Positions 1 to 37,040 of a DNA stretch of 39,646 bases are shown here, piece by piece. Each line of letters begins with the position of its first letter. Position 1 is the first letter of the stretch. The stretch lies in IMG/VR virus record IMGVR_UViG_3300011827_000030, positions 1-39,646 of that record. One strand, written 5' to 3'. Position numbers and translations under genes: made by a program. The stretch comes from a virus (lineage: Duplodnaviria; Heunggongvirae; Uroviricota; Caudoviricetes). The notes beneath the pieces are model-generated. The model saw only the letters and a program-made list of their open reading frames with translations. It did not search any database and had not been told where the DNA came from.

Positions 1-1053
1 TTACGGGGTAATGCCAACCGCTGCCGCCACTTTGTCGCCACTTGGCAGCGTTGCCAGAGGATTGAAACGGAGCGCCGTTTCCAGATGATCCGGTGCCAGA
101 TGTGCGTAACGCATAGTCATTTTTATATCGTGGTGTCCGAGAATTTTTTGTAAGGCCAGAATGTTTCCACCCGACATCATGAAGTGCGCCGCAAACGTAT
201 GGCGCAGAACGTGTGTGAGTTGACCGCGAGGGAGCACGATAGACGTTTTTTCCATCACTGATAAAAATTGAAAATAGCAGTCTGTGAAGAAATTGAACCC
301 ATCAAGCGCCATGATCTCTTCGTAAAGCTCTTTACTGATAGGGATGCTTCTGTTTTTCTTCCCCTTCGTTCTGACAAAGGTAATTCGGTATTTGGTCACC
401 TGTGAGCGAGTAAGATTTACGGCTTCACGCCAGCGTGCGCCTGTGCTTAAGCATATCTTAACTACCAGTGCCAGAATTGGGTCCTGACGTTTGCAATCAG
501 CCAGCAATTCAACAATCTGCTCATGGGTAAGCCATGCCATCTCTTTTTCTGCGATGGTGAATTTTCGCATGTTCTCCAGTGGGTTCGGATACGACCATTC
601 GCCCAGACGGGATAGTTCGCTAAAAACACTACTTAGATAGCTTTGCTCCAGGTTAATGGTGACCGGGCTTGCTCCTTTCTTCCATTTCTCGCTGAAGTAG
701 ATCTCGCCTGTCAGGCGTTTATCTCGATAGTGGGCAAACATTTTAGAGGTGAGATCGGTTGCAAGAGGATTGCCCAGAGCGTCAACCATCAACAGCAATT
801 TGTCATAGACATGCTGCCCAGCTGTCAGAGATTTACCATGTAGTTTGAACCATAGTTCAACCACGTCTTTCAGTGTTCGACGATCCACTGATTCACCCAG
901 CCAGGGCTTTGCTTCGGTTTCTTCCATCGTGTGACGCTCAAAAGCCAGAGCTTCGCCTTTGGTGGCGAATTGTTTACGCACACGACGTCCACTACGTCCG
1001 GCGGGGTAACATTCGCAAAGCCATTTTCCTGTGGTGAGTTTTCGTACTGCCAT
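1..1053 (-). CDS. int: Tyrosine-type site-specific integrase (P2/186 Int-like)
   Basis: 350-aa ORF; the C-terminal region (HVLRHTFAAHFMMSGGNILALQKILGHHDIKMTMRYAHL) shows the R..HxxR..Y catalytic signature of tyrosine recombinases; sits at the prophage end next to the att repeat. Confidence 0.9.
   Translation of the reverse strand: MAVRKLTTGKWLCECYPAGRSGRRVRKQFATKGEALAFERHTMEETEAKPWLGESVDRRTLKDVVELWFKLHGKSLTAGQHVYDKLLLMVDALGNPLATDLTSKMFAHYRDKRLTGEIYFSEKWKKGASPVTINLEQSYLSSVFSELSRLGEWSYPNPLENMRKFTIAEKEMAWLTHEQIVELLADCKRQDPILALVVKICLSTGARWREAVNLTRSQVTKYRITFVRTKGKKNRSIPISKELYEEIMALDGFNFFTDCYFQFLSVMEKTSIVLPRGQLTHVLRHTFAAHFMMSGGNILALQKILGHHDIKMTMRYAHLAPDHLETALRFNPLATLPSGDKVAAAVGITP
19..41. other. 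attL: Putative attL core (left copy of direct repeat CGCTGCCGCCA-Y-TTTGTCGCCA), lying inside the 3' end of int
   Basis: Sequence cgctgccgccactttgtcgccac at 19-41 recurs with one internal mismatch at 36821-36843, immediately after the ogr stop. Confidence 0.6.
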
Positions 1054-1136: not shown

Positions 1137-2813
1137 CTAAGCAACATGCAGTTCATCGTTGGCGGAAGTTGCTGCTTTGCGCTCTTGCTCAATCGCCAGT
1201 GACTCTCTATATTCTTTCGCTTCCGCAAACATTGTCCATTGTGCGTTGATGTTCATATCTTCAATAACAGACTTAATTTCTTTAATATTTACGTTGAAAA
1301 ACTCTTTTCGTGAGTTAATTTTATTGACCTGTTTTTCGTTGAAGACTTTATGCAGATGATTTTCTAATGATGGTGCATCATCACTATAAATCATCGCATG
1401 AACATCGAACGAAAAAGGAACACTAGCATCACCGAGTTCACGAACACGATCAAGTGGTTCAAGGCGGCGTGTCATTCCAATTTTATATACATCTTCGCCA
1501 AATGAGCCAATATTACTAATTATATAAACGTGGCCTGATCTAGTTTGTTGAGCCATAGAAATAGCTCGTTGGTTTTTAGCTTCAGCTTCTTCATATTTTA
1601 ACTGTAGTTCAGCTATTTTTTGCTCTAAAGCTAAGCGTTGTTCTTCATTTGCAAGCATAAGCTCTTTTGTTGCTTTATTTATAGCTTGCTGAATAGCTTT
1701 CTCTTCTTTTTCAGCTTCTTTTATCGCTTTTTCATACTCCCTACGAGCTCTTTCCTCTTCACGAAGTTGTTCTTTAATCCTTCTTTGCTCTTCTTTTTCT
1801 TCGAGCATAATTTCATTAACTGCAACTCCCCATTTTAGCTCGTTGAGTCGAGCTTGAAGATAGATGTCACTTATTTTTGCGGACCTAAAGGCAGAACCAT
1901 TGTAATTTACAAGTTGAAACGCATCTTTTATCTCTTGGGAAAGTTTTCCAAAATTGTTGTGTTTGACTTTTGATAAAATACTGTCAACTCTTCCATTGAA
2001 GGCATCTAAAACAAAGTTGATAGCAGTATTACGCCTGTTTTGTTCAACATAATCACACGAAGCAGCTTTATTAGTTTTTATTAATAATTTTGTTAACTCC
2101 CTGGCTTTTTGTAATTCCTTACCTGCATCTGTAAACTCATAATTTTCTGCCAATTCATCGAGAACGCTACGGTTAGGGATGATCCATTCATCACCATAAC
2201 CTTCAATTTTATTTTTCATTGATTTGGCAACTGCTTCATATTTTTCTGCAAACTCTTTAGCTTCATATGCTGAACCAGCAATCTCTTTTGCTCTTTCTTC
2301 TGCATCGGAAATAATTTTCACTGCATTGTCATTAGCATTTGAGATCAGCTCATTTGCTTTACTATTGGCATTATCAAGACGTTCTTTAGCTTTCAGGCGT
2401 GCATCGCGAGCGTCTTTAGTAATTGCTATAGCTTCGCTATTAGCGTTGCTTATTTTTATCTGAGCTTGATAATTTGCTTCGTTTACTGTCTTAGCAGCCT
2501 TTATTTGGGCTTCTTCTATTTTTTGCCTGGCTATTGAGTCTGCATTTTTTATCTTATTCTCTGCTTCCATCACTGCGCTGTGCAATTCTACGTATTGCCA
2601 TAATGGCGCAGCTCGTCCTTCAAGCTCTGATAGATCTCGTACAGTCTGTGCTAATTCTTCTTGATTTTCTTTCAGTTGGTTGGAAAGGGCTATGTTGTTA
2701 GCTGTCAAGGTATTTATAGCCGCTTTATGTTTTTTGCTTTGCTTAAATAATATTACAGCTAGAATGGGGGCGAGAAATGCTAATAAGAATATAACGATGG
2801 AAAATGAATTCAT
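1137..2813 (-). CDS. Cargo protein: N-terminal transmembrane helix, long coiled coil, C-terminal T5orf172 (GIY-YIG-like) domain; candidate defence or lysogenic-conversion gene
   Basis: 558 aa; hydrophobic N-terminus SFSIVIFLLAFLAPILAVILF; K/E/A/Q-rich heptad-like stretches; C-terminal GHVYIISNIGSFGEDVYKIGMTRRLEPLDRVRELGDASVPFSFDVHAMIYSDDAPSLENHLHKVF...EFFNV matches the recalled T5orf172/DUF4041 pattern; gene is AT-rich relative to the phage backbone; RBS AAGGA precedes the ATG. Confidence 0.75.
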   Translation of the reverse strand: MNSFSIVIFLLAFLAPILAVILFKQSKKHKAAINTLTANNIALSNQLKENQEELAQTVRDLSELEGRAAPLWQYVELHSAVMEAENKIKNADSIARQKIEEAQIKAAKTVNEANYQAQIKISNANSEAIAITKDARDARLKAKERLDNANSKANELISNANDNAVKIISDAEERAKEIAGSAYEAKEFAEKYEAVAKSMKNKIEGYGDEWIIPNRSVLDELAENYEFTDAGKELQKARELTKLLIKTNKAASCDYVEQNRRNTAINFVLDAFNGRVDSILSKVKHNNFGKLSQEIKDAFQLVNYNGSAFRSAKISDIYLQARLNELKWGVAVNEIMLEEKEEQRRIKEQLREEERARREYEKAIKEAEKEEKAIQQAINKATKELMLANEEQRLALEQKIAELQLKYEEAEAKNQRAISMAQQTRSGHVYIISNIGSFGEDVYKIGMTRRLEPLDRVRELGDASVPFSFDVHAMIYSDDAPSLENHLHKVFNEKQVNKINSRKEFFNVNIKEIKSVIEDMNINAQWTMFAEAKEYRESLAIEQERKAATSANDELHVA

Positions 2814-2833: not shown

Positions 2834-3430
2834 TTAATTTGAAACTATTGTACTTCTTATACAAGCAACTACTTCAATATCAGAAAATGCACATTCAAAG
2901 CTATTCTCTGTACTTGTAATTTTAATCATACCTTTTGGAAGCTTTGTGATTTTTCGAATGGAATAGGTTCCGTCGATGTTGATTAACCAGTGCCCATCAA
3001 GTACTTCAGAAAATTTTTGATCACAAATGTATGTGACGAGCCCATCCTGAATAACAATTGGTGATGAAAGATTTGCAGGAAGAAATGATGAATCGAAGAC
3101 ATATGAACCATCTTCAATCATTTTGCCTGCGGTAAGGCGAAACTTGGCAAGCTCTTCTGTAGCTGCTGTCAGCGAGCTTTGCTTAAGGCCTTGCCCGGTG
3201 GTTAACCATTTCAGTGAGGTTCCTGTTTCAAGAGCACATTGGATTATCCAGTCTGCAGGAAACGTATCCCGCAAATACCTGTTCGCCAGAGTGCTTTTTG
3301 ATACTTCCAAGTGATCAGCTAAAGCCTGTCGTGTCGTAAAGCCATAAGCTTCGACTAATCGCTCAATCGCAGCCTTACCACCTTTATTGGGATTTATTTT
3401 GATCTCATTTGGGTACTTTGATGTTGACAT
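2834..3430 (-). CDS. cI: 186-type CI immunity repressor (CI-like HTH N-terminal domain)
   Basis: 198 aa; N-terminal ...STLANRYLRDTFPADWIIQCALETGTSLKWLTTGQG resembles the phage CI repressor HTH family; divergent from apl/cII across a promoter region. Confidence 0.8.
   Translation of the reverse strand: MSTSKYPNEIKINPNKGGKAAIERLVEAYGFTTRQALADHLEVSKSTLANRYLRDTFPADWIIQCALETGTSLKWLTTGQGLKQSSLTAATEELAKFRLTAGKMIEDGSYVFDSSFLPANLSSPIVIQDGLVTYICDQKFSEVLDGHWLINIDGTYSIRKITKLPKGMIKITSTENSFECAFSDIEVVACIRSTIVSN
3406..3418. repeat. Direct repeat CATTTGGGTACTT, copy 1 (candidate operator / Apl or CI binding site)
   Basis: Exact 13-mer repeated at 3465-3477 in the cI/apl switch region. Confidence 0.5.
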
Positions 3431-4497: not shown

Positions 4498-4802
4498 GCC
4501 CCGGTGAACGCCTGAATGGACTTAATCACATTGCGGAGTTAAGGGCGAAAGTTTTTGGCCTGAATATTGAGTCAGAGCTTGAGCGGTTTATTAAAGATAT
4601 GCGTGATCCACGGGATATCAATAATGAACAAAATAAACGAGCACTGGCTGCCATATTCTTTATGGCAAAAATTCCAGCTGAACGTCATAGCATCAGCATT
4701 AATGAGCTGACCACTGACGAAAAGCGGGAGCTGATTAAAGCAATGAATCATTTTCGTGCAGTGGTGAGCTTATTTCCCAGACGGCTAACCATGCCGAATT
4801 AA
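4461..4802 (+). CDS. Hypothetical early-operon protein
   Basis: 113-aa ORF in the early operon; overlaps the previous ORF's stop; no recognised motif. Confidence 0.55.
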   Translation: MAIEGAAATVPLSPGERLNGLNHIAELRAKVFGLNIESELERFIKDMRDPRDINNEQNKRALAAIFFMAKIPAERHSISINELTTDEKRELIKAMNHFRAVVSLFPRRLTMPN

Positions 4803-4869
4803 CCAACTAATGAAATTAATGGCGTAAACCCGCCGGGCATCCCTTTATCTAAATTCAGGAGAATTGATT

Positions 4870-5103
4870 ATGCGTAATATTGAAACCCTCACGACTAAAA
4901 CCGGACCGGATGACGCAGGGCTTAATATTTTACTGACAGAGGCTCGTCTGGAAGAACGCCGGGCAAGGGCTGAAGCAATGGCAGCTCGCCTTGATAGCCT
5001 GGCGTGTCATATCTCATCCAGTCAACTAAACCACGTGGAAGCTGCAGAACTGCTGCGTGTGACTGCTGAAGCAATCCAGAACGAAGCGCAGGAGATCCAC
5101 TAA
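4870..5103 (+). CDS. Hypothetical early-operon protein
   Basis: 77-aa ORF; AGGAGA RBS 8 nt upstream of ATG 4870. Confidence 0.55.
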   Translation: MRNIETLTTKTGPDDAGLNILLTEARLEERRARAEAMAARLDSLACHISSSQLNHVEAAELLRVTAEAIQNEAQEIH

Positions 5104-5330
5104 TGGCTGATGCAATGGATCTCGTACAGCAGCGCGTTGAAGAAGAACGCCAGCGCCATATCCGTGCTGCCCGTGCCAAAACGCCGGGCGTGTCCCGCGT
5201 GCTTTGCGTTGAGTGTGAAGCGCCAATTCCGCCAGCACGCCGCCGTGCCATTCCGGGTGTGCAGCTTTGCATTACATGTCAGGAAATCGCAGAGCTGAAA
5301 GGCAAACATTACAACGGAGGTGCTGTATGA
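5103..5330 (+). CDS. TraR/DksA-family C4 zinc-finger protein
   Basis: 75 aa with CxxC...CxxC (CVECEAPIPPARRRAIPGVQLCITCQ); start overlaps the preceding stop (TAATG). Confidence 0.8.
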   Translation: MADAMDLVQQRVEEERQRHIRAARAKTPGVSRVLCVECEAPIPPARRRAIPGVQLCITCQEIAELKGKHYNGGAV

Positions 5331-6184
5331 GCACCATCTTGAAATGGGCGGGAAATAAAACCGCCGTAATGTCCGAACTGAAAAAACATCTTCCTGCTGG
5401 TCCGCGACTAGTTGAACCTTTCGCGGGTTCCTGTGCTGTGATGATGGAGACGGATTATCCCTGCTATCTGGTTGCGGATATTAATCCTGATTTAATCAAC
5501 CTCTATAAAAAGGTTGCCGCTGATTGTGAATCGTTTATATCTCGCGCCAAAGTTTTATTTGAGATCGCAAACAGGGAGGTGGCTTATTACAACATAAGGC
5601 AGGAGTTTAATTACTCAACTGAAATTACTGATTTCATGAAAGCGGTATATTTCCTGTATCTCAATCGTCACGGTTACCGTGGGTTATGTCGCTATAACAA
5701 GAGCGGGCATTTCAACATTCCCTACGGTAATTATAAAAATCCGTATTTCCCTGAAAAAGAAATTCGCGCTTTTGCAGAAAAAGCCCAGCGAGCAACGTTT
5801 ATCTGCGCCAGCTTTGATGAAACGCTGGCGATGTTGAAGGCGGGGGATGTGGTGTATTGCGATCCGCCTTATGACGGTACGTTTTCCGGCTATCACGCTG
5901 ACGGCTTTACTGAAGATGACCAGTATCACCTGGCATCCGTTCTTGAACATCGGTCATCAGAAGGACATCCGGTCATTGTTTCTAACAGTGACACATCCCT
6001 GATCCGTTCGCTGTATCGCAATTTTACTCACCACTATATCAAGGTAAAACGCAGCATCGGCGTAGCAGCTGGTGAGAGTAAATCAGCAACAGAAATCATT
6101 GCTGTTTCCGGGCCGCGCTGCTGGGTGGGATTTGATTATTCGCGTGGCGTGGATAGTTCTGCCGTGTACGGAGTACGTGCATGA
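5327..6184 (+). CDS. dam: DNA adenine methyltransferase (Dam-like, GATC-type N6-adenine methyltransferase)
   Basis: N-terminal LKWAGNK and PFAGS motifs plus DPPY catalytic motif ([14 protein letters not shown]); RBS GGAGG; ATGA overlap with the upstream gene. Confidence 0.85.
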
Positions 6185-8595
6185 GCCATGCCGATATGAG
6201 CAACTGCTGCGGCTTTAACGAGGCTGCCGCATCGTTCTCATGGAACAGCCCGAAAAAGGCCATTAACCCTTATCTGGACCCGGCGGAAGTTGCGCCGGTT
6301 TCTGCGCTTTCAAACCTGATCACTCTGTACGCTGCCGATAACGAGCAGGAACAACTGCGCCGCGAGGCACTGAGTGATCAGGTCTGGGAGCGTTATTTCT
6401 TTAATGAATCCCGTGATCCTGTCCAACGCGAAATAGAGCAGGATAAGCTCATTAGCCGGGCAAAGTTGGCGCATGAGCAGCAGCGTTTTAACCCGGACAT
6501 GGTCATTCTGGCAGACGTCAGCGCCCAGCCCTCCCATATCAGCAAGCCGCTGATGCAACGTATTGAATACTTCAGCAGCCTGGGCAGGCCAAAGGCTTAT
6601 TCCCGCTATTTACGTGAGACGATTAAGCCATGTCTGGAACGACTGGAGCATGTACGCGACAGCCAGCTATCTGCATCTTTTCGTTTTATGGCAAGCCATG
6701 TAGGGCTGGACGGCCTGCTGATTCTGCCTGAAATGAGTCAGGATCAGGTGAAACGCCTGTCTACCCTTGTCGCTGCGCATATGAGCATGTGCCTTGATGC
6801 AGCTTGTGGTGATTTGTATGCCACCGATGACGTTAAGCCAGAAGAAATCCGCAAGACATGGGAAAAGGTGGCAGCGGAAACCCTGCGTCTGGATGTCATC
6901 CCGCCTGCGTTTGAGCAACTCCGTCGGAAAAGAAACCGCCGTAAACCCGTGCCCTATGAACTCATTCCGGGTTCGCTGGCGCGTATGTTGTGCGCCGACT
7001 GGTGGTACCGGAAATTATGGAAAATGCGTTGCGAATGGCGGGAAGAGCAGTTGCGTGCTGTCTGCCTGGTCAGCAAAAAAGCATCTCCCTATGTCAGCTA
7101 TGAAGCCGTGATGCATAAACGTGAGCAGCGCCGCAAGTCACTGGAGTTTTTCCGTTCTCATGAACTGGTGAACGAAGAGGGCGACACGCTGGATATGGAA
7201 GACGTGGTAAACGCCAGCAGCAGCAACCCGGCGCACCGCCGCAATGAGATGATGGCCTGTGTTAAAGGTCTGGAGCTTATCGCGGAAATGCGCGGTGACT
7301 GCGCCGTTTTCTACACCATTACCTGTCCGTCACGTTTCCATTCCACGCTCAATAACGGCAGACCAAACCCAACCTGGACAAATGCGACGGTAAGACAAAG
7401 CAGCGATTATCTGGTCGGCATGTTTGCTGCATTTCGTAAGGCGATGCACAAAGCCGGGTTGCGCTGGTATGGCGTGCGGGTGGCTGAGCCGCATCATGAC
7501 GGTACAGTTCACTGGCACCTGTTGTGTTTCATGCGCAAAAAAGACCGCCGCGCCATTACTGCATTGTTGCGTAAGTTTGCCATCCGTGAAGACCGCGAGG
7601 AACTGGGTAATAACACTGGTCCACGCTTTAAATCTGAGCTGATAAACCCGCGCAAAGGAACGCCGACAAGCTACATCGCGAAATACATCAGTAAGAACAT
7701 TGACGGGCGTGGTCTGGCTGGCGAGATCAGCAAGGAAACGGGTAAATCCCTGCGTGATAACGCTGAATACGTTAATGCCTGGGCGTCTCTGCATCGTGTT
7801 CAGCAATTCCGCTTCTTTGGTATTCCGGGACGTCAGGCTTACCGTGAACTTCGCTTGCTGGCTGGTCAGGCGGCAAGGCAACAGAGTGACAAAAAAGCAG
7901 GTGCGCCGGTACTGGATAACCCGCGTCTTGATGCCATTCTGGCTGCTGCTGATGCTGGTTGTTTTGCCACCTACATCATGAAGCAGGGCGGCGTACTGGT
8001 TCCCCGCAAATATCACCTCATCAGAACCGCTTATGAAATCAACGAAGAGCCAACCGCCTATGGCGATCACGGTATTCGTATTTATGGCATCTGGTCACCC
8101 ATTGCAGAGGGCAAGATCTGCACTCATGCAGTGAAGTGGAAAATGGTTCGTAAGGCCGTTGACGTTCAGGAGGCGGCAGCCGACCAGGGCGCTTGCGCCC
8201 CTTGGACTCGTGGCAATAACTATCCCCTTGCTGAAAATTTGAACCAACAGGAGAAAGATAAATCAGCTGATGGGGACACCAGAACGGACATTACCCGCAT
8301 GGATGACAAGGAGTTGCACGATTACTTGCACAGTATGAGCAAAAAAGAGCGCCGGGAACTGGCTGCAAGGTTACGCCTGGTTAAACCGAAACGGCGTAAA
8401 GACTACAAACAGCGAATTACAGACCATCAGCGACTGCAGCTCGTCTATGAGCTGAAGTCCAGAGGATTTGATGGTAGCGAGAAAGAGGTCGATTTACTCC
8501 TTCGCGGCGGCAGTATTCCGTCAGGAGCAGGCCTGCGTATCTTCTATCGGAACCAGCGTTTGCAGGAAGATGATAAGTGGCGGAACCTGTATTAA
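6181..8595 (+). CDS. A: Replication initiation protein A (rolling-circle nicking endonuclease, P2 gpA-like)
   Basis: 804 aa; HUH-type motif (GTVHWHLL) and active-site tyrosine motif ([14 protein letters not shown]) typical of P2 A; conserved position after the early genes. Confidence 0.9.
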
Positions 8596-8747: not shown

Positions 8748-8936
8748 ATGCAGGACTATTTTTTGGAGTCTTTGAAGCTCCAGCGCATTGATTTTTTTCT
8801 TAAGCTTGTAGCGGCTAGTGAGTGTAGTGATGAAGAGAAGGGGCTGGCTCTGCAGTGGGTTTCTGAACTGACAGATGAACTCATGGCAAAAATCAGAACC
8901 CACGAATACAACCGCTCAATGGATGTCATCAGCTGA
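8748..8936 (+). CDS. Small SOS-box-associated protein (possibly Tum-like antirepressor; unverified)
   Basis: 62-aa ORF with RBS AGGAGG immediately upstream, directly downstream of the LexA box; functional call is by analogy to the 186 SOS-controlled antirepressor, not by recognised sequence. Confidence 0.45.
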   Translation: MQDYFLESLKLQRIDFFLKLVAASECSDEEKGLALQWVSELTDELMAKIRTHEYNRSMDVIS

Positions 8937-8946
8937 GGTGACTTTT

Positions 8947-9180
8947 ATGCGCATTGAAATAATGATCGATAAAGAGCAGAAGATTAGCCAGTCTACACTG
9001 GACGCCCTTGAATCCGAGCTTTACCGCAATCTGCGCCCCCTGTATCCCAAAACGGTAATCCGTATCCGTAAAGGTAGCTCTAACGGTGTGGAACTGACCG
9101 GACTGCAACCGGACGAAGAAAGAAAACAAGTGATGAAAATTATGCAGAAGGTGTGGGAAGACGACAGCTGGCTGCATTAA
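8947..9180 (+). CDS. dinI: DinI-family protein
   Basis: 77 aa, MRIEIMIDKEQKISQSTLDALESELYRNLRPLYPKTVIRIRKGSSNGVELTGL...VWEDDSWL aligns by eye with E. coli DinI. Confidence 0.85.
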   Translation: MRIEIMIDKEQKISQSTLDALESELYRNLRPLYPKTVIRIRKGSSNGVELTGLQPDEERKQVMKIMQKVWEDDSWLH

Positions 9181-9624
9181 GAAATGTTGCCCCCAGGAGG
9201 ATTCATTCTAATGGGGGCTAGTTTGGGCAACGAGTGAAACGAGGCGTAAGGTGGGTAATCATTTTGATAAGTGATCGCCCACTTTGTGCCAAAAGCGGAC
9301 ATCGCAGATATGACAATATGTTAGTCAACCGCGATTAGATCAGTCAGTTGGAGATGGGGGGAAGTTACAAAAACTTGTCGTCCGCCATCTCCGACTACGG
9401 GTATTCTTAACTGTACATGCTCTTTCAATCGATGATTTTTGAGTAAGTGACTAACCTATTGTTTTGATAGTAATTAAACGTATAAACGTGCGGAGTTAAT
9501 TTGAAAGTTATGTGTCTATGTTTGACAAGCAAAATTTTAAAGATTGGTTTTATCCACAGGTAATTTATGCTATTAATAGCCTCAAGCCCTGTAATTATTT
9601 TTATTTAAATGGATAAATTTGAAA

Positions 9625-11745
9625 ATGAGTACATATCATAATGATCAGCCAATACTAGGTGGTCAAAATGACCCCGATTTATTAAACAGGCTCGATTTTG
9701 CAAATCACTTGGCAAATATTCTACTATTAAATCACAATGATGATTGCCTTACTGTATCTATAGAGGCAGAGTGGGGATATGGTAAAACGTCAGTGATAAA
9801 TCTTATAAAAGGTGCTTTGAATGAAAAGGAGTTCTTACCAATAATAATAGAATATAATCCATGGCTGGCCGGTCAACCTGAATCCTTGATTCAGGATTTT
9901 TTATTACAGTTCTCTTCACAACTAAATATTAAAGACAATTCAAAAGCTGCTTTGGAAGCTTCAAAAGAATTAATTGCATACTCCAATCTCTTCAGTGTAG
10001 CAAAACTTATTCCAGGGACAGAACCTTGGGCATCTATCATAGAAAAAGTCCTCTCTAATTTTGGGAGTGCTACTAAAAAGATTGCTGAATTAAAAAAACT
10101 GGATCTTTTAGGTAGAAAAAAACAAGTAGAGAAGGCAATAAAAAAAATAAAAAATCCTATTGTGGTAATAATTGATGATTTTGATCGATTGACTCCTACA
10201 GAAACTTTTCAAGTTTTACGATTGGTTAAAGCAGTTGCAGATTTCTCAGGAACTTCTTTTTTACTTGCATTTGATCCTAATTATTTGATTTCTGTGCTTG
10301 ATAAAAATAATATCGTCAATTCTTCGGAGTATCTTAATAAAATTGTTCAACTTCGAGTCCCACTTCCTGTAATCTCAGAAAGGGGTATGAATGAACTTGC
10401 AAATGCAGAACTGGAAAAGATAGCTAATAAATCTTTAACTGACAGATTCGAAAGTGATCAAGAAAGACTAAGCTGGATTTATCATAATTATTTTAAAAAA
10501 CTAATTAAGAATCCGAGAGAGTTAAAAAGATTTTTTAACCATTTGAGATTCGTTTTAGAGCAAATTGAAGGGCAGGTATGTTTTTCTGATCTCTTTGCTT
10601 TATCTCTGGTTGCCACTAAATCGAGTTTGGTATACGAGCATATTAAAAGCACACCAGAGGCATATATAGGGAAGAGATTCACTAATGATGGCCTTTTGAT
10701 GGATAAACCTCAAGATATTGTGGATAGATTTAGTGATGAGCGAAATAAGAAACTGAGTAATTTTTCTGATCAAGAGCGTTCAGTGATGCAGGAACTCTTA
10801 GGAGATATTTTCCCACTTCTACAGTCAAGCGGGTATTCTCATTATGGGGTTTCTGATCCCGATACAGCAGGAAGGGTTTCTGCACCACAAAGGCTTCATA
10901 TTGCGTTTCATTATAAAACTCCAGCAGGGTATATTTCTGATCATGATATTATCAGTTTCATTAATGGAGATGTTAAAAGAAACGAATTTCTAAGAGATGT
11001 GCTCTCGCAAAATGCAGAAGAAAGATTTTTTGAAATGATGAATAATTATTCGAGTTATTGTAAGGATAATAGTTTTGAAATATTAACGTGTATTTATGAT
11101 ACTTTTCTGTTTTCTCAAGAATTGAAATCCTCATTGGAAAGAAACTATGGTTTTTTGACAAAAGATCTTTATAGAAGGATGAATTGGCTCACTAATAAGG
11201 TAATATCTGAAAGTGATGATAAATATGGGTTAATAAAGGGGGTTGTAGGTAGGCATGAGAATGCGCCACTTGGTGCAGACGTATTATGCCAAGCTCGTAA
11301 ACAGATTCAAAATGGATGGAATGACAAAATATGGGTTAGTATTGAAGAATTGGCTGAACTTGAAGGTATCTTTCAACAGGTGGCTATTAAAGTTTTAAGT
11401 GATAAAATATATTTTGATTATCATCTTGAATCTCATATATTTTTCGAATTAAAGAGAGTTTCATCTCAATTTACATCAGAGTTTATTGCTTCTGTATTAT
11501 CAAGTGATGGCCTGATTAGGATGTGTGAGATTATTGGTGAAACAGGTAGTGATTCAACAAATGGCCCTTTTTTTAAGTTTGATGAAATTTACTTCGGGGA
11601 AATACTTGATGTGAATGAACTTCGAAATAAAGCGAAAAATTTAGATTTTTCAATTTATCCCACACGCATTCAAGCTGTACTTAAGAGTATTCTGGATGGA
11701 CAAAAATATTATTTGAGAGATGCAACTGTTGGTGAAGATTGGTAA
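9625..11745 (+). CDS. KAP-family P-loop NTPase (cargo, candidate defence gene)
   Basis: 706 aa from ATG 9625; Walker A EAEWGYGKTS (9766-9792) and Walker B hhhhDDFDR (IVVIIDDFDRLTPTE) with a long helical C-terminal region, the KAP NTPase signature; gene is AT-rich; no obvious TM helices. Confidence 0.8.
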   Translation: MSTYHNDQPILGGQNDPDLLNRLDFANHLANILLLNHNDDCLTVSIEAEWGYGKTSVINLIKGALNEKEFLPIIIEYNPWLAGQPESLIQDFLLQFSSQLNIKDNSKAALEASKELIAYSNLFSVAKLIPGTEPWASIIEKVLSNFGSATKKIAELKKLDLLGRKKQVEKAIKKIKNPIVVIIDDFDRLTPTETFQVLRLVKAVADFSGTSFLLAFDPNYLISVLDKNNIVNSSEYLNKIVQLRVPLPVISERGMNELANAELEKIANKSLTDRFESDQERLSWIYHNYFKKLIKNPRELKRFFNHLRFVLEQIEGQVCFSDLFALSLVATKSSLVYEHIKSTPEAYIGKRFTNDGLLMDKPQDIVDRFSDERNKKLSNFSDQERSVMQELLGDIFPLLQSSGYSHYGVSDPDTAGRVSAPQRLHIAFHYKTPAGYISDHDIISFINGDVKRNEFLRDVLSQNAEERFFEMMNNYSSYCKDNSFEILTCIYDTFLFSQELKSSLERNYGFLTKDLYRRMNWLTNKVISESDDKYGLIKGVVGRHENAPLGADVLCQARKQIQNGWNDKIWVSIEELAELEGIFQQVAIKVLSDKIYFDYHLESHIFFELKRVSSQFTSEFIASVLSSDGLIRMCEIIGETGSDSTNGPFFKFDEIYFGEILDVNELRNKAKNLDFSIYPTRIQAVLKSILDGQKYYLRDATVGEDW

Positions 11746-12189
11746 TACTTTTATAGGCATGCTTAGAGATGATGGAGTATCTTTTTCTCCCTTTTGAGGA
11801 AGTGATTTCCAACTGGGCATGGATGCCACATCAAATGGACAGTTGTTGTCACCTGTCAGTTAGCTGCTATTTGTTTATAGCAGCTGAAAGCCCACTACAT
11901 AGTTACACCAGAAGGACTAACAATGTAGTGGATAGCTAAATTTGACCACCTTAACAGATATGTTAATTTCCCCCCCCTCGCTCACAGCGGACTTTCATCT
12001 TTGTAAACCCTTATAATTCGCTTTTCAGCGGTCATTCAGATACGGATTTACGCTTTCCTTGGCAGTGCATGACTATGACGCATGAGATCGCATGATAGTT
12101 TGAGGATCGTTTTTGCTGAGGCCAGCCAGAACTGGCGTGCTTTTGCTTATGTCATGCAGGTGCATGAAAACCACTACATAAAGTGGGCA

Positions 12190-12208
12190 GGCGTGGCGGG
12201 GATACGAG
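12190..12208. other. cos: Candidate cos site (cohesive-end region) GGCGTGGCGGGGATACGAG
   Basis: First 13 nt match the 186/P2 cohesive-end sequences as I recall them (GGCGTGGCGGGGA...), followed by a GCGCGC element; sits in a 600-bp non-coding, higher-GC stretch at the A-side/Q-side junction where cos lies in P2. Confidence 0.5.
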
Positions 12209-12341
12209 CGCGCGTTATGACAAATAGATGATTAGCCTGATTTATTTACAGCTGTATAAATGATCACCTTGTAATTAGGTAAGTAATGTCTTCTATTATC
12301 ATTGATTTGATAGGATTAATCTGTTTTTTGAGGATTAGAGG

Positions 12342-14678
12342 ATGATTGAAGAGGTAGTTATTGACAAGGTAGGCTCATATAATGGCCCTACGCAGCTTTT
12401 ACATGGACTTTCTAAATTTAACTATTTATATGGAGCTAATGGTGCAGGTAAAACAACTATAAGTAAAATTATTAATGACCCTGAACAATATCCAACATGT
12501 CCGATTAAATGGAAAAATAATATATCTTTAATAAGCTACGTATATAATAAAGATTTTGTTGAAAGAAATTTTAGTCAAGATAAAATTAAAGGTGTATTTA
12601 CCCTTGGTAGCGATCTTAAGGAGGATGAAGAGAAACTAATATCTCTTAAAGAAGAAAAAAATAAGCTAATGGAATCTATTATAGCAAAGGAAAAGTTAAT
12701 AGATGGTGGTGATAATGAATTAGGCGTTATTAAAAAAATCGAAGACCATGAAAAATCTTTTAAAGATTCATGTTGGAAGCAAAAAGTAAAACATGACAAT
12801 GTGTTCTCAAAGGCTTTTGAGGGATTAAGGAATAGTAGTGAAAAATTTAAAGCCAGAGTGTTGGCTGAGTATGAAAATAATACATCAGAAGTTTGCTCAA
12901 TAGCAGAGTTAATTGAGAAAGCAAAAATTGTTTTTTCTACTGAATTGACATCACATGTATCAATTACAATTCCATCCTTCAATGGGATAGATGATATTTT
13001 GAGTAGGGAAGTTTGGAGTGAGCGCATCCTAGGGAAAAAAGACGTTAGTGTTTCAGACTTAATTACAATGCTCAATAACAGTGATTGGGTTAAGGAGGGT
13101 TTAACATATTTCAGTAAATCTAATCCCAAGTGCCCATTCTGCCAGCAGGATGTAAATGATAATATATTTGATAATCTTTCATCATATTTTGATAAAACAT
13201 ATGAGTTAAAAAAAAGAGAAATCGATGCATTGGTTTTACAATATGAATATCAACTTAATAATATCTTGAAGGCGATAGATGATATAAGGGCGATTAAATC
13301 TCCATTCATAAATTATGAAGTGTTTGAGGATAAGGCTAAGATAGTATTATCTGAATTAAACAAGAATTTTGAATTGGCAAAAAATAAACGCAATTTTTTA
13401 AGTGAATCAGTTCATTTTAGTGACTTAAGTGAAGTTGTTGATGATTTTATTTCTTTTTTGAATGATTCAAATCTATTGATAGATAATAATAACAAAATAC
13501 ATAGTAATAGAAAGGTAGAGGCTAGTAATCTTTCTAAGCAGATATGGGCATATATCGTAAAGGTGGAGTTAAAGTCTGAAATAACTTCTTACCGTAGCAA
13601 ATCTGATAAATTTAATAGGACGTTACAAGGACTTAAATCTGGGATAGAAGAAGACAAAAAGAAGTTAATGTTAAATACTTCGGCTATTGAGGCAATTGAG
13701 TCTAATAAAACCAGTACTCTTCCAACTATTACAAAAATTAACAAGATTCTGGACTCTTATGGCTTCAAAAATTTTTACTTAAAACCCTCCGAAGATAAAA
13801 AGCATTATATGATAGTGAGAGATAGTGGAGATAATGCTCGTACAACCCTTAGTGAGGGAGAAAAGACATTTATCACTTTTTTGTACTTTTATAGCCTTGT
13901 TAGAGGGAGTGATAATGCATCAGGTGTTTTAGATGATCGTGTTGTAGTATTTGATGATCCAATTTCAAGTTTAGATAGTGATATTCTGTTTATTGTAAGT
14001 TCGTTGATTAAAGATTTAATGGAGGATGTTCGTAAGGATGAAGGAAATATTAAGCAAATTATATTCCTTACTCATAATATTTATTTTCATAAAGAGTTGA
14101 CTTTTAATACCAAAAGATCCGGTAATCAAGCAATGAAAGAGGAGACTTTTTGGATTGTAAGGAAAAAAGGGAAGGTTTCATATCTTGAAAAGTGCGAATC
14201 AAACCCAATAAAAACGTCTTATGATTTGCTCTGGTGCGAATTGAGAAGAACAGACATTAATAATAATACTATACAAAATACAATGCGAAGGATTTTGGAG
14301 AATTACTTTAAGATATTAGGTGGGATGGATATTAGGAAGCTTGAGTGTCATTTTTATGGTGATGAAAAAATCATATTTAAATCTTTAGTGTCATGGATTA
14401 ATGATGGTTCCCATTTTGCAGGTGATGATCTTTATATGAATTTAGATACGGAGTCTGTGCAAAAATATTTAATTGTTTTTCAGAAGATATTTGAATGTAG
14501 TGAGCATACTGCCCATTACAAAATGATGATGGGTGAGTTTTATAAACCGTTAAATGAGTCACTTCATCTACAAGATGAGTTTGATATAGATGATAGTGCG
14601 AATGATGAGTATGCTTCGTCAAAAATTGAGATAAAAGATGGAATAAACACATCTCTACATAGCAACACATATTTGTAA
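12342..14678 (+). CDS. RloC-like ABC/SMC-type ATPase with coiled-coil insert, CxxC zinc hook and PrrC-like C-terminal putative nuclease (cargo, candidate defence gene)
   Basis: 778 aa; Walker A GANGAGKTT (12432-12458); CPFC at 13131-13142 near the middle of the predicted coiled coil; signature-like LSEGEKT, Walker B VVVFDDP, H-loop FLTHN; C-terminal region contains RRILE and IRKLECH (14334-14351); RBS AGAGG; AT-rich. Confidence 0.75.
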   Translation: MIEEVVIDKVGSYNGPTQLLHGLSKFNYLYGANGAGKTTISKIINDPEQYPTCPIKWKNNISLISYVYNKDFVERNFSQDKIKGVFTLGSDLKEDEEKLISLKEEKNKLMESIIAKEKLIDGGDNELGVIKKIEDHEKSFKDSCWKQKVKHDNVFSKAFEGLRNSSEKFKARVLAEYENNTSEVCSIAELIEKAKIVFSTELTSHVSITIPSFNGIDDILSREVWSERILGKKDVSVSDLITMLNNSDWVKEGLTYFSKSNPKCPFCQQDVNDNIFDNLSSYFDKTYELKKREIDALVLQYEYQLNNILKAIDDIRAIKSPFINYEVFEDKAKIVLSELNKNFELAKNKRNFLSESVHFSDLSEVVDDFISFLNDSNLLIDNNNKIHSNRKVEASNLSKQIWAYIVKVELKSEITSYRSKSDKFNRTLQGLKSGIEEDKKKLMLNTSAIEAIESNKTSTLPTITKINKILDSYGFKNFYLKPSEDKKHYMIVRDSGDNARTTLSEGEKTFITFLYFYSLVRGSDNASGVLDDRVVVFDDPISSLDSDILFIVSSLIKDLMEDVRKDEGNIKQIIFLTHNIYFHKELTFNTKRSGNQAMKEETFWIVRKKGKVSYLEKCESNPIKTSYDLLWCELRRTDINNNTIQNTMRRILENYFKILGGMDIRKLECHFYGDEKIIFKSLVSWINDGSHFAGDDLYMNLDTESVQKYLIVFQKIFECSEHTAHYKMMMGEFYKPLNESLHLQDEFDIDDSANDEYASSKIEIKDGINTSLHSNTYL

Positions 14679-14727: not shown

Positions 14728-15759
14728 TTAGTTAAGCTCATATGGAGAAAATTCTATAAGTTTTTCCCCGAGCCATGCATTAATTTCTCTAAATCGTTTT
14801 TGCAAAGGAATTAATTCATTTATCACAAAAACCTTACTAGCCTTCTCCACATCCCCAAACCCCCCGACATTATTAGGCATAATCCCCATCATTTGCGGTG
14901 GAACGCGGTGTGCCGCCATCATGTCATCGCGACTAACATTTTTGATATTCAGAAACTCATCCTTCGCTGCGACTTCTGATAACGGGATAATCTGAAGCCC
15001 GTCCTTTTTGCCGTTAGGTGAGTACATAAACAGGTTGCGGAAGTTGCCCGGCCCTTTGGCGCTTTTCATCGCATTGCGGAGGTTGTTCACATCCTCCTGG
15101 TTTTGCGCGGCATCGGTCATATACATGATGAAGCCTGCATGGCTGCCGTTGATGTAATACTTGCGGCGGAACAGCGTGGCGGACTCGTTGAGCAAAGCGG
15201 ATGGGATGGCAGAAAGATAACCGGGCAGGCCGTAGATCTCCTGGTTGATGTCCGGTTCCATCAGATGAAAGATGCTGCCTTTCGTGAACTGATACGGCTG
15301 TGTTGTCATACCGTATTGCACAAACCAGTAGGTTTCCAGGTCTAACCCGCGTCGGGTGTATTTTGCCAGGGCCGGTTCAAGGGCGATAACTTCACCGAAG
15401 CGGTTCGTGCGTTTCTCCAGGTAGGCGTTACCAAATACCAGATAGTCCTGCACAAAACGTGAAAAAGCCTGCTGGCTGAGCAGCGGGTGAGGGATGTAGG
15501 TACTGGTCAGAATGTTGCATTTTACTGCAATCGGGGAGCTGTGATGCACGGCAGCGCGGAAGGTGCGTGCCAGTCCGTCAAAACTTACGGGTGGCTCATA
15601 CCAGCGATCCGTCTGTACGCATTCCACATAGTCCAGCAGTTCGCGGCGGTCCAGTACAGGAATGGGATCACCAAAGCTGAAAGCTTCGGCTGAAGTTTGA
15701 TTTTTATGCTGGCTCTGTTTCGTCGCCGCAGCGCGGTTTTTCTTACTCTTTCCCATCAA
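14728..15759 (-). CDS. Q: Portal protein (P2 gpQ-like)
   Basis: 343 aa, length and position as P2 Q; leftward, overlapping the terminase gene by 4 nt. Confidence 0.85.
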   Translation of the reverse strand: MMGKSKKNRAAATKQSQHKNQTSAEAFSFGDPIPVLDRRELLDYVECVQTDRWYEPPVSFDGLARTFRAAVHHSSPIAVKCNILTSTYIPHPLLSQQAFSRFVQDYLVFGNAYLEKRTNRFGEVIALEPALAKYTRRGLDLETYWFVQYGMTTQPYQFTKGSIFHLMEPDINQEIYGLPGYLSAIPSALLNESATLFRRKYYINGSHAGFIMYMTDAAQNQEDVNNLRNAMKSAKGPGNFRNLFMYSPNGKKDGLQIIPLSEVAAKDEFLNIKNVSRDDMMAAHRVPPQMMGIMPNNVGGFGDVEKASKVFVINELIPLQKRFREINAWLGEKLIEFSPYELN

Positions 15760-17522
15760 AAAATCTCCACAATATTGCTGGTATTGGCGGACTCGCCCTG
15801 CAGCGGTTCGTTAAACAGTGCGTGCATTGTTGCCCAGGCCAGATCGGCGTGGCTGGCTTCTTCGCTGCGGTTGGCTTCATAGGTCGGGCGGTTGCCGCTG
15901 GCGGTGGTGGCGCGACGGATAGCCATGAATGACTGCGCAATGTCGGTGTGCCCGGCGTCAAACTCCAGACGGCGGTGGCTGATAATGTCGTAGGCCTTGA
16001 GTACCAGGGCGTTTTTAACGTTGGAGTTGTAGACAAACTCCCGGACGGCAGGAAAGAACGCTTTCACGTTCTCATAAACCCCGTGACCAACGCCGGTCGA
16101 GTCGATACCGATATAGGTCACGTTGTACTGTTCGGTCAGTTTTTTGATGGCGTCAGCCTGGGCGCGGAAGTCCATCCCGCGCCACTGGTGACGCTCAAGA
16201 ATGCGGAACTTACCGCCCGGCACGGCTGGCGGTGCCACCACCACGCATCCGGCGCTGTCGCCGTTTTGCGTACCTTTTGCCGGGTCATAACCGATCCACA
16301 CTTCGCGCCAGCCAAACGGGCGCAGAGCCAGTGCATGAAAGTCGGTCCAGACTTCCCAGCTGTCCACCATGCACGCCTGCAGCTCGCTGAGCGGAAACAC
16401 GGACGCGAGATCGTCCACAAACTCGCACATCAGCAGGTTCTGGTATTCGTCCGGGCTGTACTCCATGCGCAACTGGTCAAGGTCGAAAAGGTTACATCCG
16501 CCGCGCACTGCATCTTCCACGGTGACTATCTGGCGGTATTGCCCGTCTGCGCACAGCAGGCCGGGGGCCAGATTGCTGTGGGACAGGTCGATGTCCACCT
16601 TGTCAGCTTTGTTGCGTCCACGGTTGAACAGCGCACCGGACCAGAACGGATAAGCACTGTGGGTCAGGCTGGATGGCGTGGAAAAATAGGTTTGTCGCCA
16701 TTTCTTGTGAATAGCCATCCCGGAAGCCACTTTGCGCAGCTCCTGGAATTTCGGTATCCAGAAATATTCATCCAGATACAGGTTGCCGTGATAACTCTGG
16801 GCCGTGCGGGCATTGGTGCCGAGGAAGTAAAGCGTGGCTCCGTTAGGAAGCACCATCGGATCGCCTTTTAGCTCCACCTCGACTTCTTTGGCGAAGTCGA
16901 TGATGTATTGTTTAAAGACGTGGGCCTGAGCTTTACTGGCAGAAAGGAAAATCTGGTTACGTCCGGTAAGCAGGGCGTCAATCAGGGCTTCACGGGCAAA
17001 ATAGAAGGTCGCGCCGATCTGGCGAGACTTCAGCAGGTTGCGGATGCGGTTGGTTTTTCCGGCTTCCCACCAGTGGCGCTGGTAGTTGAACATGGAGGAA
17101 TGGAAGATTTCTTCCAGCTTCTCAATCTGTTCATCGGTGAAGACATTCTTTTCCGGCTGACGGCGTGGGCCTTTGTTGCGGTTGGCGACGTTAGGGTTTA
17201 AGTCGGCTTCGTTGCCGCCATTGTTAAACTTGCCGATCCGCGCGTGGCGCTCTGACTGGCGCGCCAGCAGGTCAATCTCTTTGAAATCTTTCCCTTCTTT
17301 GTGCTCCTTCATAATGAGCTGGCAGTAGCGGGCGGCGGTGGTGAGCTGCATCTGATCCAGTGGCCCATAGTCACCCCACTTGTCGCGTTTCTTCCAGCTG
17401 TGAACGGTTGCAACTTTCTCGCCCAGCATTTCAGCAATGCGGGCTACGCGGTATCCCTGAAAGTACAGCAGCATGGCCTGCCGACGGGGATCGAGATCTG
17501 CGGGTGTCAGTGTGGTGTTCAT
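15756..17522 (-). CDS. P: Terminase large (ATPase) subunit (P2 gpP-like)
   Basis: 588 aa, length and position as P2 P; divergent from O across a late promoter region. Confidence 0.85.
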   Translation of the reverse strand: MNTTLTPADLDPRRQAMLLYFQGYRVARIAEMLGEKVATVHSWKKRDKWGDYGPLDQMQLTTAARYCQLIMKEHKEGKDFKEIDLLARQSERHARIGKFNNGGNEADLNPNVANRNKGPRRQPEKNVFTDEQIEKLEEIFHSSMFNYQRHWWEAGKTNRIRNLLKSRQIGATFYFAREALIDALLTGRNQIFLSASKAQAHVFKQYIIDFAKEVEVELKGDPMVLPNGATLYFLGTNARTAQSYHGNLYLDEYFWIPKFQELRKVASGMAIHKKWRQTYFSTPSSLTHSAYPFWSGALFNRGRNKADKVDIDLSHSNLAPGLLCADGQYRQIVTVEDAVRGGCNLFDLDQLRMEYSPDEYQNLLMCEFVDDLASVFPLSELQACMVDSWEVWTDFHALALRPFGWREVWIGYDPAKGTQNGDSAGCVVVAPPAVPGGKFRILERHQWRGMDFRAQADAIKKLTEQYNVTYIGIDSTGVGHGVYENVKAFFPAVREFVYNSNVKNALVLKAYDIISHRRLEFDAGHTDIAQSFMAIRRATTASGNRPTYEANRSEEASHADLAWATMHALFNEPLQGESANTSNIVEIF

Positions 17523-19576: not shown

Positions 19577-20227
19577 ATGAGCCTGAGTCCCGCACGGCAG
19601 CATCGCCTGCGCGTTCAGGCTGAACAGGCCGCCCGCGAGGGCGGCAGTGTTCGCCACGCATCGGGCTATGACCTGATGCTGCTGCAACTGGCGGAAGACC
19701 GCCGCCGTCTCAAGGGCGTTCAGTCCACGGTCAAAAAAGCGGAAATCAAGGTGGAGCTGCTGCCGAAGTACGCCGCCTGGGCAGAGGGTGTCCTGGCTGC
19801 CGGAGGCGCTCAACAGGATGACGTGCTGATGTACGTGATGCTGTGGCGCATTGATGCCGGAGATTATGCCGGAGCGCTGGAGATCGGGCGTCATGCCCTG
19901 CGTCATGGCTGGGTGATGCCGCTGGGTAACCGCAACGTGCAGACCGTGCTGGCAGAGGAAATGGCAGACGCCGCGCAGAGCGCAATGCTTGCCGCCACCG
20001 GCTTTGATGCTGATCTGTTGCTGCAGACGCTGGAGCTGACAGACGGTCTGGATATGCCGGACCAGTCACGGGCGCGTCTGCATAAAGCGATTGGCGCTGT
20101 CCTGAGTGAAAGCAATCCGGCGTCCGCCCTTAATCATCTCAACCATGCGTTACAGCTCGATCCCCGCTGTGGCGTGAAAAAAGACAAACAGCAGCTGGAG
20201 CGCAGACTGCGCAATGACAGCCGCTGA
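19577..20227 (+). CDS. M: Terminase small (endonuclease) subunit (P2 gpM-like)
   Basis: 216 aa; RBS AGGAGCG; position after N. Confidence 0.8.
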   Translation: MSLSPARQHRLRVQAEQAAREGGSVRHASGYDLMLLQLAEDRRRLKGVQSTVKKAEIKVELLPKYAAWAEGVLAAGGAQQDDVLMYVMLWRIDAGDYAGALEIGRHALRHGWVMPLGNRNVQTVLAEEMADAAQSAMLAATGFDADLLLQTLELTDGLDMPDQSRARLHKAIGAVLSESNPASALNHLNHALQLDPRCGVKKDKQQLERRLRNDSR

Positions 20228-24870: not shown

Positions 24871-24914
24871 ATTAATACCTTGTTTTGTGAAGCTTGAATT
24901 TACCTTTAGCGCAT

Positions 24915-24932
24915 TGTTTGTTGCTTCATACA
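24915..24932. promoter_or_regulatory. Late-activator (Ogr) site TGT-N12-ACA upstream of V
   Basis: TGTttgttgcttcatACA, part of the longer palindrome tgtttgttgcttcatacaaaca, in the 108-bp gap between the cargo gene start and V. Confidence 0.5.
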
Positions 24933-24978
24933 AACATGGTTTGTTTGTGATCTCAAGTGTTTGATTAAGAATTTGAGA

Positions 24979-25557
24979 ATGAACGTACAACTCACGGAAA
25001 TCATGCGCCTTATCACCAATCTGATCCGCACAGGGGTAGTCACCGAAGTGGACCGGGAAAACTGGCTTTGCAGGGTGAAAACGGGCGAGCTTGAAACCAA
25101 CTGGATCAGCTGGCTGACGCTACGTGCCGGAAATGCCCGGACATGGTGGCGACCATCGGAAGGTGAGCAGGTGGTGCTGCTGAGTCTGGGCGGCAATCTG
25201 GAAACAGCCTTTGCGCTGCCCGCCATCTATTCGAATCAGTTTGCACCGCCGTCGACGTCGGCGGACGCCTGCGTGACAGAACATCCTGACGGTGGCTGGT
25301 TTGAATATGAACCCGCCACCGGGCGCTGGTATGTCAGGGGCATCAAATCAATGGTCATTGAGGCCGCTGATAACATCACCATGAAAACCAGTGAGTTTGT
25401 ACTGGAGGCTGACCGCACGCGCATTAACAGCGAAGTGGTGATCAATGGTGGCGTTACCCAGGGCGGCGGAGCGATGAGTTCTAACGGGATTGTGGTTGAT
25501 GCACATCAGCATACTGGCGTCCTGAAAGGCGGCGACACAACCGGAGGCCCGGTATGA
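24979..25557 (+). CDS. V: Baseplate spike / assembly protein (P2 gpV-like)
   Basis: Contains IRTGVVTEVD...WWRPSEGEQVVLLSLGGNLETAFALPAIYS, resembling P2 V as recalled; start ambiguous between ATG 24979 and ATG 25003. Confidence 0.8.
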   Translation: MNVQLTEIMRLITNLIRTGVVTEVDRENWLCRVKTGELETNWISWLTLRAGNARTWWRPSEGEQVVLLSLGGNLETAFALPAIYSNQFAPPSTSADACVTEHPDGGWFEYEPATGRWYVRGIKSMVIEAADNITMKTSEFVLEADRTRINSEVVINGGVTQGGGAMSSNGIVVDAHQHTGVLKGGDTTGGPV

Positions 25558-36843: not shown

Positions 36844-37040
36844 CGTTAAAAAACAGTGCTTCTAACATCATGATTTTAAACAGCTTAAATTTCAGGCAAC
36901 AAAAAACCCATCAACCTTGAACCGAAGTGGCGGGGGTGGTGGGCTCCCCAAAAAGGGGACATCAAAGAAAAGCAGTGGCATTACTTATGACTGATGCCCT
37001 GAGAAAAAGTTCTGCCTGTGACGGCTTTTTTCTCAAAAAA

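Follow-up and report, generated by a model that had tools for sequence, protein, structure and literature searches.

A 19-nt sequence as the very probable cohesive-end site of a Fels-2-type P2-like prophage of Escherichia coli

The locus analyzed here raises the question of whether a 19-nt sequence in a 596-bp non-coding stretch (11746-12341), flanked by ORFs of 708 aa (9619-11745) and 778 aa (12342-14678), is the cohesive-end site of a P2-like prophage, and whether the palindrome and the repeated 9- and 10-mers upstream of it form part of that site. Both were suggested in a preliminary description of the window, the term used here for the whole 39,646-nt stretch of DNA. All motif coordinates given there were exact when re-read in the window sequence, and the cohesive ends of 186 and P2 that it gave (GGCGTGGCGGGGAAAGCAT and GGCGAGGCGGGGAAAGCAC, respectively) were correct and agreed with database records. 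As judged by sequence comparison, the 19-mer GGCGTGGCGGGGATACGAG at 12190-12208 (plus strand) is taken, with a probability of about 0.93, to be the cosN (cohesive-end site) of an apparently complete Fels-2-type P2-like prophage of E. coli. The site is already known: the 19-mer has been published as cos and mapped experimentally in a near-identical phage.

The features of the locus are collected in Table 1. The gene order around the site was gpA, DinI, cargo, cos, cargo, portal and TerL; that is, cos was located between gpA with the right-end accessory region and the portal-terminase (Q-P) operon. A terminase of the gpP/gpM type was encoded on the same element as cos, as were scaffold, major capsid and gpD. 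A match to the att core of the HS prophage of E. coli, a relative of this one, was located at 36898-36911 (attR). An island of about 400 bp with 42-47% GC separated the two AT-rich cargo genes, and the 851 bp around cos were 100% identical to the chromosome of E. coli D7, with 98.2% identity over 14.85 kb.

Table 1. Positions of the features described, in window coordinates.
Feature	Position	Strand	Remarks
Integrase	1-1053	-	
558-aa protein with DUF4041 and T5orf172/MUG113 (GIY-YIG-like) domains	1137-2813	-	Further cargo position between integrase and CI
CI repressor	2834-3430	-	
gpA	6181-8595		
DinI	8875-9180		
Right-arm cargo, KAP family P-loop NTPase, PifA-like	9619-11745	+	Pfam PF07693 1e-45; PADLOC PifA 6e-64; 28-41% GC
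3' flank of the KAP-NTPase cargo gene, structured	11746-11961	+	9-bp palindrome 11862-11885 and 14-nt inverted repeat 11892-11931
Outer right-arm segment	11962-12063	+	80-95% identity in about 250 E. coli genomes including BL21 and REL606 (subset of P2-like prophages)
Whole conserved Fels-2-type cos block	12064-12214	+	Right-arm recognition region, cosN and 6 bp
Distal GCATGA repeats	12065-12095	+	GTGCATGA 12065-12072; GCATGA 12080-12085 and 12090-12095
GC-rich inverted repeat GCCAG-N6-CTGGC, then T-run	12121-12146	+	Terminator scan
Proximal inverted pair TCATGCA / GTGCATGA, then AAAACC	12152-12172	+	TGCAT and AAAACC invariant in 9/9 aligned sequences
Equivalent of the 55-bp block shared by P2 and P4	12161-12215	+	29 bp right arm, 19-mer, 7 bp left arm
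Heptamer GTGGGCA abutting the top-strand nick	12183-12189	+	Partner 12209-12215, bottom strand ACGCGCG
Predicted cosN 19-mer GGCGTGGCGGGGATACGAG	12190-12208	+	Predicted nicks: top 12189/12190, bottom 12208/12209; 5' overhangs
AT-rich leader of the left-arm cargo gene	12215-12341	+	Homology with other cos loci stops here
Left-arm cargo, AAA_13 ATPase ("RloC-like" in the preliminary description), PADLOC candidate PDC-S06	12342-14678	+	PF13166 2e-163; PDC-S06 2e-266; PrrC 5e-11; 24-36% GC
Portal (gpQ homologue)	14728-15759	-	PF04860; 317/342 identical to HS
Terminase large subunit (gpP homologue)	15756-17522	-	Terminase_6N, Terminase_6C, Terminase_5; 375/588 vs P2 gpP
Terminase small/endonuclease subunit (gpM homologue)	19577-20227	+	PF05944 2e-40

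The reading of 12190-12208 as a P2/186-type cos is strongly supported by three bodies of evidence taken together, namely this synteny, ungapped homology to experimentally defined termini, and identity to the cos mapped in a sibling phage. For the second of these, P2, 186, PSP3 and P4, the records of which annotate their ends as cohesive, were each joined at their right and left termini and aligned with the window, Fels-2, SEN8 and HS. The comparison with the cos regions of P2, 186, PSP3 and Fels-2, named as a check in the preliminary description, ran ungapped through the right arm and the 19-mer. The 19-mer was homologous to the family sequence GGCGWGGCGGGGA-N6; it was identical at 19/19 positions in E. 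coli HS phage 1, Fels-2 and SEN8, at 15/19 in 186 and PSP3, and at 14/19 in P2 and P4.

A "55 bp long cos site" is attributed to Ziermann and Calendar (1990) in PMC9594776, and the shared core is also cited in PMC9122126. The figure of 55 bp itself was taken from PMC9594776, and the block was rebuilt from the sequences. In the ungapped alignment of nine sequences, 38 of its 55 positions were invariant, following the pattern TGCAT.AAAACC....C...AAG.GGGC. / GGCG.GGCGGGGA.A..A. /.GCGCG. (right arm, overhang and left arm). The conserved flanks were thus TGCAT-AAAACC...AAG-GGGC on the right arm and GCGCG on the left arm.

The closest experimental evidence comes from the mitomycin-induced phage 1 of E. 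coli HS, for which read-start analysis and PhageTerm placed cos at 926016-926034, 5'-GGCGTGGCGGGGATACGAG-3' (Zünd et al., PMC8008629, Supplementary Table 4). The reported coordinate was checked in NC_009800 and holds GGCGTGGCGGGGATACGAG. TerL and TerS of the window were identical to those of HS phage 1 at 586 of 588 and 215 of 216 residues, respectively, and the replication and head modules of the two prophages shared 96-97% identity. With the same terminase and the same site as in HS phage 1, the cos call is as firm as it can be made short of virion DNA from this strain. For SEN8, the cos site stated by its authors is ggcgtggcggggatacgag (PMC5427200); the SEN8 record begins with the 19-mer, and its last base is the one that precedes the 19-mer (equivalent of 12189).

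When the 596-bp non-coding stretch was compared with phage records by BLAST, only 12064-12214 was matched, by 75 records at 86-93% identity. All of these were P2-like phages of Escherichia, Klebsiella, Salmonella, Yersinia and Erwinia, Fels-2 included. Of 5426 complete E. coli genomes, 1241 (about 23%) carried the cos block.

It is also conceivable that the site is a true cos homologue and yet a relic, carried by a prophage that no longer makes particles, whether because added cargo has lengthened its genome beyond what the capsid can hold or because of a defect elsewhere. With four AT-rich cargo insertions, the prophage measures at least 36.9 kb within the window, compared with 31.5 kb for the inducible HS phage 1 and 33.6 kb for P2; however, phage records of 38.9-39.6 kb, some of them prophage predictions, carry this cos type. 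The window does not include the left end of the prophage, but full-length ORFs were found for integrase, CI, gpA, portal, TerL, gpO, gpN, TerS and gpD, and the cos block was intact. A relic was considered unlikely on this evidence, and the preferred reading is a cos belonging to a prophage that would still be inducible.

Within the conserved block of 151 bp, the repeat GCATGA occurred five times, compared with a window-wide density of 0.71 per kb, and no other 151-bp stretch of the window held three or more. The distal pair GCAT-N5-GCAT (12080-12095) was positioned at -110 nt from the top-strand nick, exactly so in P2, P4, 186, PSP3, Fels-2, SEN8, HS and the window. By analogy, the distal repeats are candidate binding sites of the small terminase subunit (gpM). 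The inverted repeat at 12121-12146 is terminator-like and probably ends rightward transcription before cosN; its equivalents formed a perfect 9-bp stem followed by TTTT in HS and Fels-2, and at this position 186, PSP3 and P4 had an inverted repeat that differed in sequence. A terminator scan called terminator-like sites at 11978 and 12121 on the plus strand and at 12186 on the minus strand. On the minus strand of 12171-12186, AAAACC and a short inverted repeat read as a hairpin followed by TTTT; the stem of this hairpin by the top-strand nick was 6 bp and GC-rich in P2 and P4, 5 bp in the window and 4 bp in 186. An additional role as backstop terminator of the portal-terminase operon, which runs leftward, is conceivable.

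The two nicks are flanked by GC-rich heptamers. Their symmetry was 6/7 in P4 (GCGGGCG / GCGCGCG), 5/7 in P2 and HS, and 3/7 in the window. The heptamers of the family may represent quasi-symmetric half-sites GCGSGCR (top GYGGGCR, bottom GCGCGCR), and by analogy the large subunit may have its nuclease site in these heptamers together with the 19-mer. These family-wide features, that is, the GCATGA/TGCAT repeats, the inverted repeat, AAAACC and the heptamers at both nicks, were not among the motifs listed in the preliminary description. Of the repeat copies given there, the copy of CCACTACATA at 12171-12180 does lie inside cos, filling the variable spacer between the conserved AAAACC and AAG-GGGC, while the upstream copies lie outside. 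In the outer right-arm segment, a run of eight C residues (C8) was found along with an imperfect direct repeat of 13 nt (CAGCGGACTTTCA at 11985, CAGCGGTCATTCA at 12026).

On the left-arm side, conservation beyond the 19-mer was limited to about 6-7 bp (CGCGCG). Among the 39 partial matches listed from E. coli genomes, homology ended at 12213-12221 (query 614-622) in 38 and at 12226 in one. The homology between P2 and P4 ended at the same place, just past the 19-mer.

The upstream motifs are a separate matter. The palindrome consists of the arms AGCTGCTAT (11862-11870) and ATAGCAGCT (11877-11885); the 9-mer CCACTACAT at 11892-11900 and its inverted copy ATGTAGTGG at 11923-11931 extend to a 14-nt inverted repeat with 93% complementarity (11892-11905 / 11918-11931). 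When the 596-bp stretch was simulated with a Markov-1 model, 23% of runs produced a direct 10-mer repeat and 2% produced any 9-mer with at least three copies, so that the upstream repeats are only weakly beyond chance. The segment containing them was found in 18 of 5426 complete E. coli genomes, always at 99% identity or more, and in the three loci inspected (D7, K56-43-un and SCU-176) it lay directly 3' of the KAP gene. The palindrome and repeat motifs were not found in HS, Fels-2, Cartapus or SEN8. When folded as RNA, the 220-nt flank 11746-11965 formed a chain of hairpins with -71 kcal/mol and z-scores of -5.0 (plus strand) and -3.4 (minus strand) relative to shuffled controls.

The preliminary description had proposed that the palindrome and the 9- and 10-mer copies could be binding sites for terminase or host factors; on that view, the palindrome and CCACTACAT(A), present at 11892 and again at 11923, would be accessory sites acting jointly with the 12171 copy. 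A 9-mer repeated three times within 596 bp was seen in just 2% of the simulations, as noted above, and the similarity extends to TGAAA(A/G)CC(C)ACTACATA; the local alignment to the cos core was nevertheless not significant (7%). The distribution of the segment speaks against such a role, with 18 genomes compared with 1241 carrying the cos core. It was missing in Fels-2 and in HS phage 1, a phage whose DNA is packaged from an identical cos, and it lies outside everything common to P2, P4 and 186. The IHF consensus WATCARNNNNTTR was not found on either strand of 11600-12450, all five matches in the window lying elsewhere. In SCU-176, moreover, an IS1 separates the hairpins from cos. An accessory packaging role was accordingly judged very improbable, and the proposal was not upheld.

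The palindrome and inverted repeat at 11862-11931 are instead hairpins of the KAP cargo cassette and not packaging signals. Their most likely role is that of structures that form or stabilize RNA 3' ends, or else insulation of transcription, and the whole flank (11746-11965) could be a 3'-UTR or a non-coding RNA element of the defence cassette. The terminator scan called no T-run terminator at 11862-11931, where the sequences 3' of the stems are GAAAGCCC and ATAGCTAA. An Rfam search of 11600-12450 returned nothing meaningful (isrF, 14 bits against a threshold of 40), and the 56-aa ORF at 11769-11939 had no RefSeq annotation. At three loci with distant KAP homologues (Marinifaba, Shewanella and a Citrobacter fragment), the hairpin segment was not conserved and the DNA downstream of the gene was unrelated.

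Two other origins of these motifs were considered and set aside. The upstream CCACTACATA copy as a relic of a duplicated cos right arm was dropped because its 15/17-column local alignment was matched in 7% of simulations. The hairpins did not conform by eye to the R''/R' consensus of integron attC-like sites, and no integron integrase was present. The IS element of SCU-176 is an IS1A that lies between the KAP flank and cos (4703-5400 of the SCU-176 locus); it is inserted right behind the second hairpin, at the equivalent of window position 11932, and 11924-11932 is duplicated. The KAP gene of that strain was split into two ORFs.

That the cos resemblance is a chance match of a short motif, with nothing else to it, in ordinary intergenic DNA is refuted to the point of being negligible, as the degenerate P2-family cos pattern matched only once in the 39.6-kb window with 0.04 matches expected, and as the match lies at the correct genomic position, within 151 bp homologous to the 75 phage records, in register with the joined termini and the mapped cos of HS phage 1.

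The position of the cargo genes relative to cos was compared among relatives. In P2, 186 and PSP3, the distance from the cohesive end to the portal gene is about 170-180 bp and no gene lies between them. The preliminary description had called this left-end slot normally empty, which is correct for these three phages but not for the lineage of the present prophage, where one or two cargo genes were found between cos and portal in all ten sampled loci with a Fels-2-type cos. The interval held a 565-aa gene in Fels-2, two genes in SEN8, a DUF4145 gene in Cartapus, a 463-aa gene in HS, a RES-domain gene with a small ORF in both K56-43-un and SCU-176, a SEFIR-domain gene in 2011C-3911, a DUF4145 gene in H22, two genes in DG342-2, and the AAA_13 ATPase gene in the window. 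Cargo at this place is therefore the usual arrangement in the lineage. A defence hotspot of P2 has been described in the gpA-gpQ interval that surrounds cos (Rousset et al. 2022, PMC9122126; PMC13586616), and in the window AT-rich defence-type genes of 24-41% GC stand beside cos, compared with about 50% GC in the backbone.

The cargo on the two sides of cos did not always travel together. The AAA_13 gene was present in 9 of the 18 genomes carrying the KAP flank. In K56-43-un, the KAP side was 99.7% identical to the window as far as base 12207 and diverged from 12208, the last base of the overhang (G vs T), with RES-domain cargo in place of the AAA_13 gene on the left arm; the divergence point was determined by comparing window 12207-12215 with 4962-4971 of the K56-43-un locus. 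The co-occurrence in half of the genomes and the divergence at 12208 together indicate that the two sides of cos were exchanged independently. Cohesive-end annealing between genomes has been raised as a speculation (Rousset et al. 2022, PMC9122126). It is a tentative and rather doubtful idea that the cos core acts as the pivot of independent right and left cargo exchange through annealing of cohesive ends between co-resident P2-like genomes, in place of ordinary homologous recombination. The data are compatible with such annealing, and equally with crossovers anywhere inside the 150-bp conserved block.

With the 19-mer as cosN, packaging would proceed as follows. After induction, excision and replication, the prophage's own terminase, composed of the gpM and gpP homologues, would recognize the right arm of about 125 bp (12064-12189), the likely recognition elements being the phased GCATGA/TGCAT repeats and the AAAACC...GYGGGCR element; these assignments of motifs to subunits are predictions from sequence. 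Staggered nicks at the positions given in Table 1, whose polarity was taken from the annotations of 186 and PSP3, would then generate 19-nt 5' overhangs. At its start, the virion chromosome would read GGCGTGG... and then carry the AAA_13 cargo gene; its end would be formed by the KAP-NTPase cargo gene and, after it, ...AAAGTGGGCA. Because only the CGCGCG side of about 6-7 bp appears to be conserved or needed on the left arm, unrelated cargo genes can abut cos there. In a further difference from lambda, P2-type terminases are reported to prefer monomeric circles.

Compared with known cos systems, the window was closest to the Fels-2 type. HS, Fels-2 and SEN8 were identical to it at 52-53 of the 55 core-block positions, and HS phage 1, Fels-2, SEN8 and Cartapus share the 19-mer and the order gpA, DinI, cargo, cos, cargo, portal. 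These relatives differ in the cargo on both sides and in an outer right arm unlike the sequence upstream of 12064; in addition, the window has T for C at 12184 and at 12215, the latter being the last conserved base of the left arm. Phages 186 and PSP3 also have a 19-nt 5' cohesive end, the first 13 bases of which are identical to those of the window, and they match it in the right-arm motifs TGCAT, AAAACC and CATAAAG-GGGCA, in GCGCGC after the 19-mer, and in the distal GCAT-N5-GCAT and the GCCAG/CTGGC inverted repeat at the same distances. They differ at overhang bases 14, 16, 17 and 19 (TACGAG vs AAGCAT) and, as stated, in having no gene between cos and portal.

P2 and P4 share the 55-bp architecture, with 40-41 of 55 positions identical, an equally short conserved part of the left arm (7 bp), and defence cargo beside cos (old/tin in P2, the hotspot in P4). 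In contrast to the window, P2 carries such cargo on the right-arm side only, its overhang matches at 14/19 positions, and its gpP is only 64% identical to TerL, which makes cross-packaging by the P2 terminase uncertain. The cos of lambda (cosQ-cosN-cosB) is alike in having a nicking site with partial two-fold symmetry and repeated small-subunit sites on one side only. It is unrelated in sequence, however, and has an overhang of 12 nt as opposed to 19 nt; no IHF consensus lies beside the putative terminase-binding repeats of the window, unlike a lambda-type cos with an IHF-assisted cosB.

For annotation, the value of the result is that the predicted ends of the virion chromosome of this prophage are fixed, which places one large defence-type gene at each extremity of the packaged DNA, both within the gpA-gpQ hotspot described previously. 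From the comparison, the Fels-2-type cos can also be given a short working definition, namely 12064-12215, of which the left-arm side needs only about 7 bp; this definition helps to spot cos in those complete E. coli genomes that carry it (about 23%) and aids the design of cosmids for a given helper type. It amounts to the correct recognition of a known element and does not raise a new biological question.

One further ORF, of 623 aa and without a Pfam match, was observed at 23119-24990 on the minus strand, opposite to its surroundings within the late-gene region. It is likely an accessory or defence cargo gene, and its position is presumably that of the foreign orf30 in P2.
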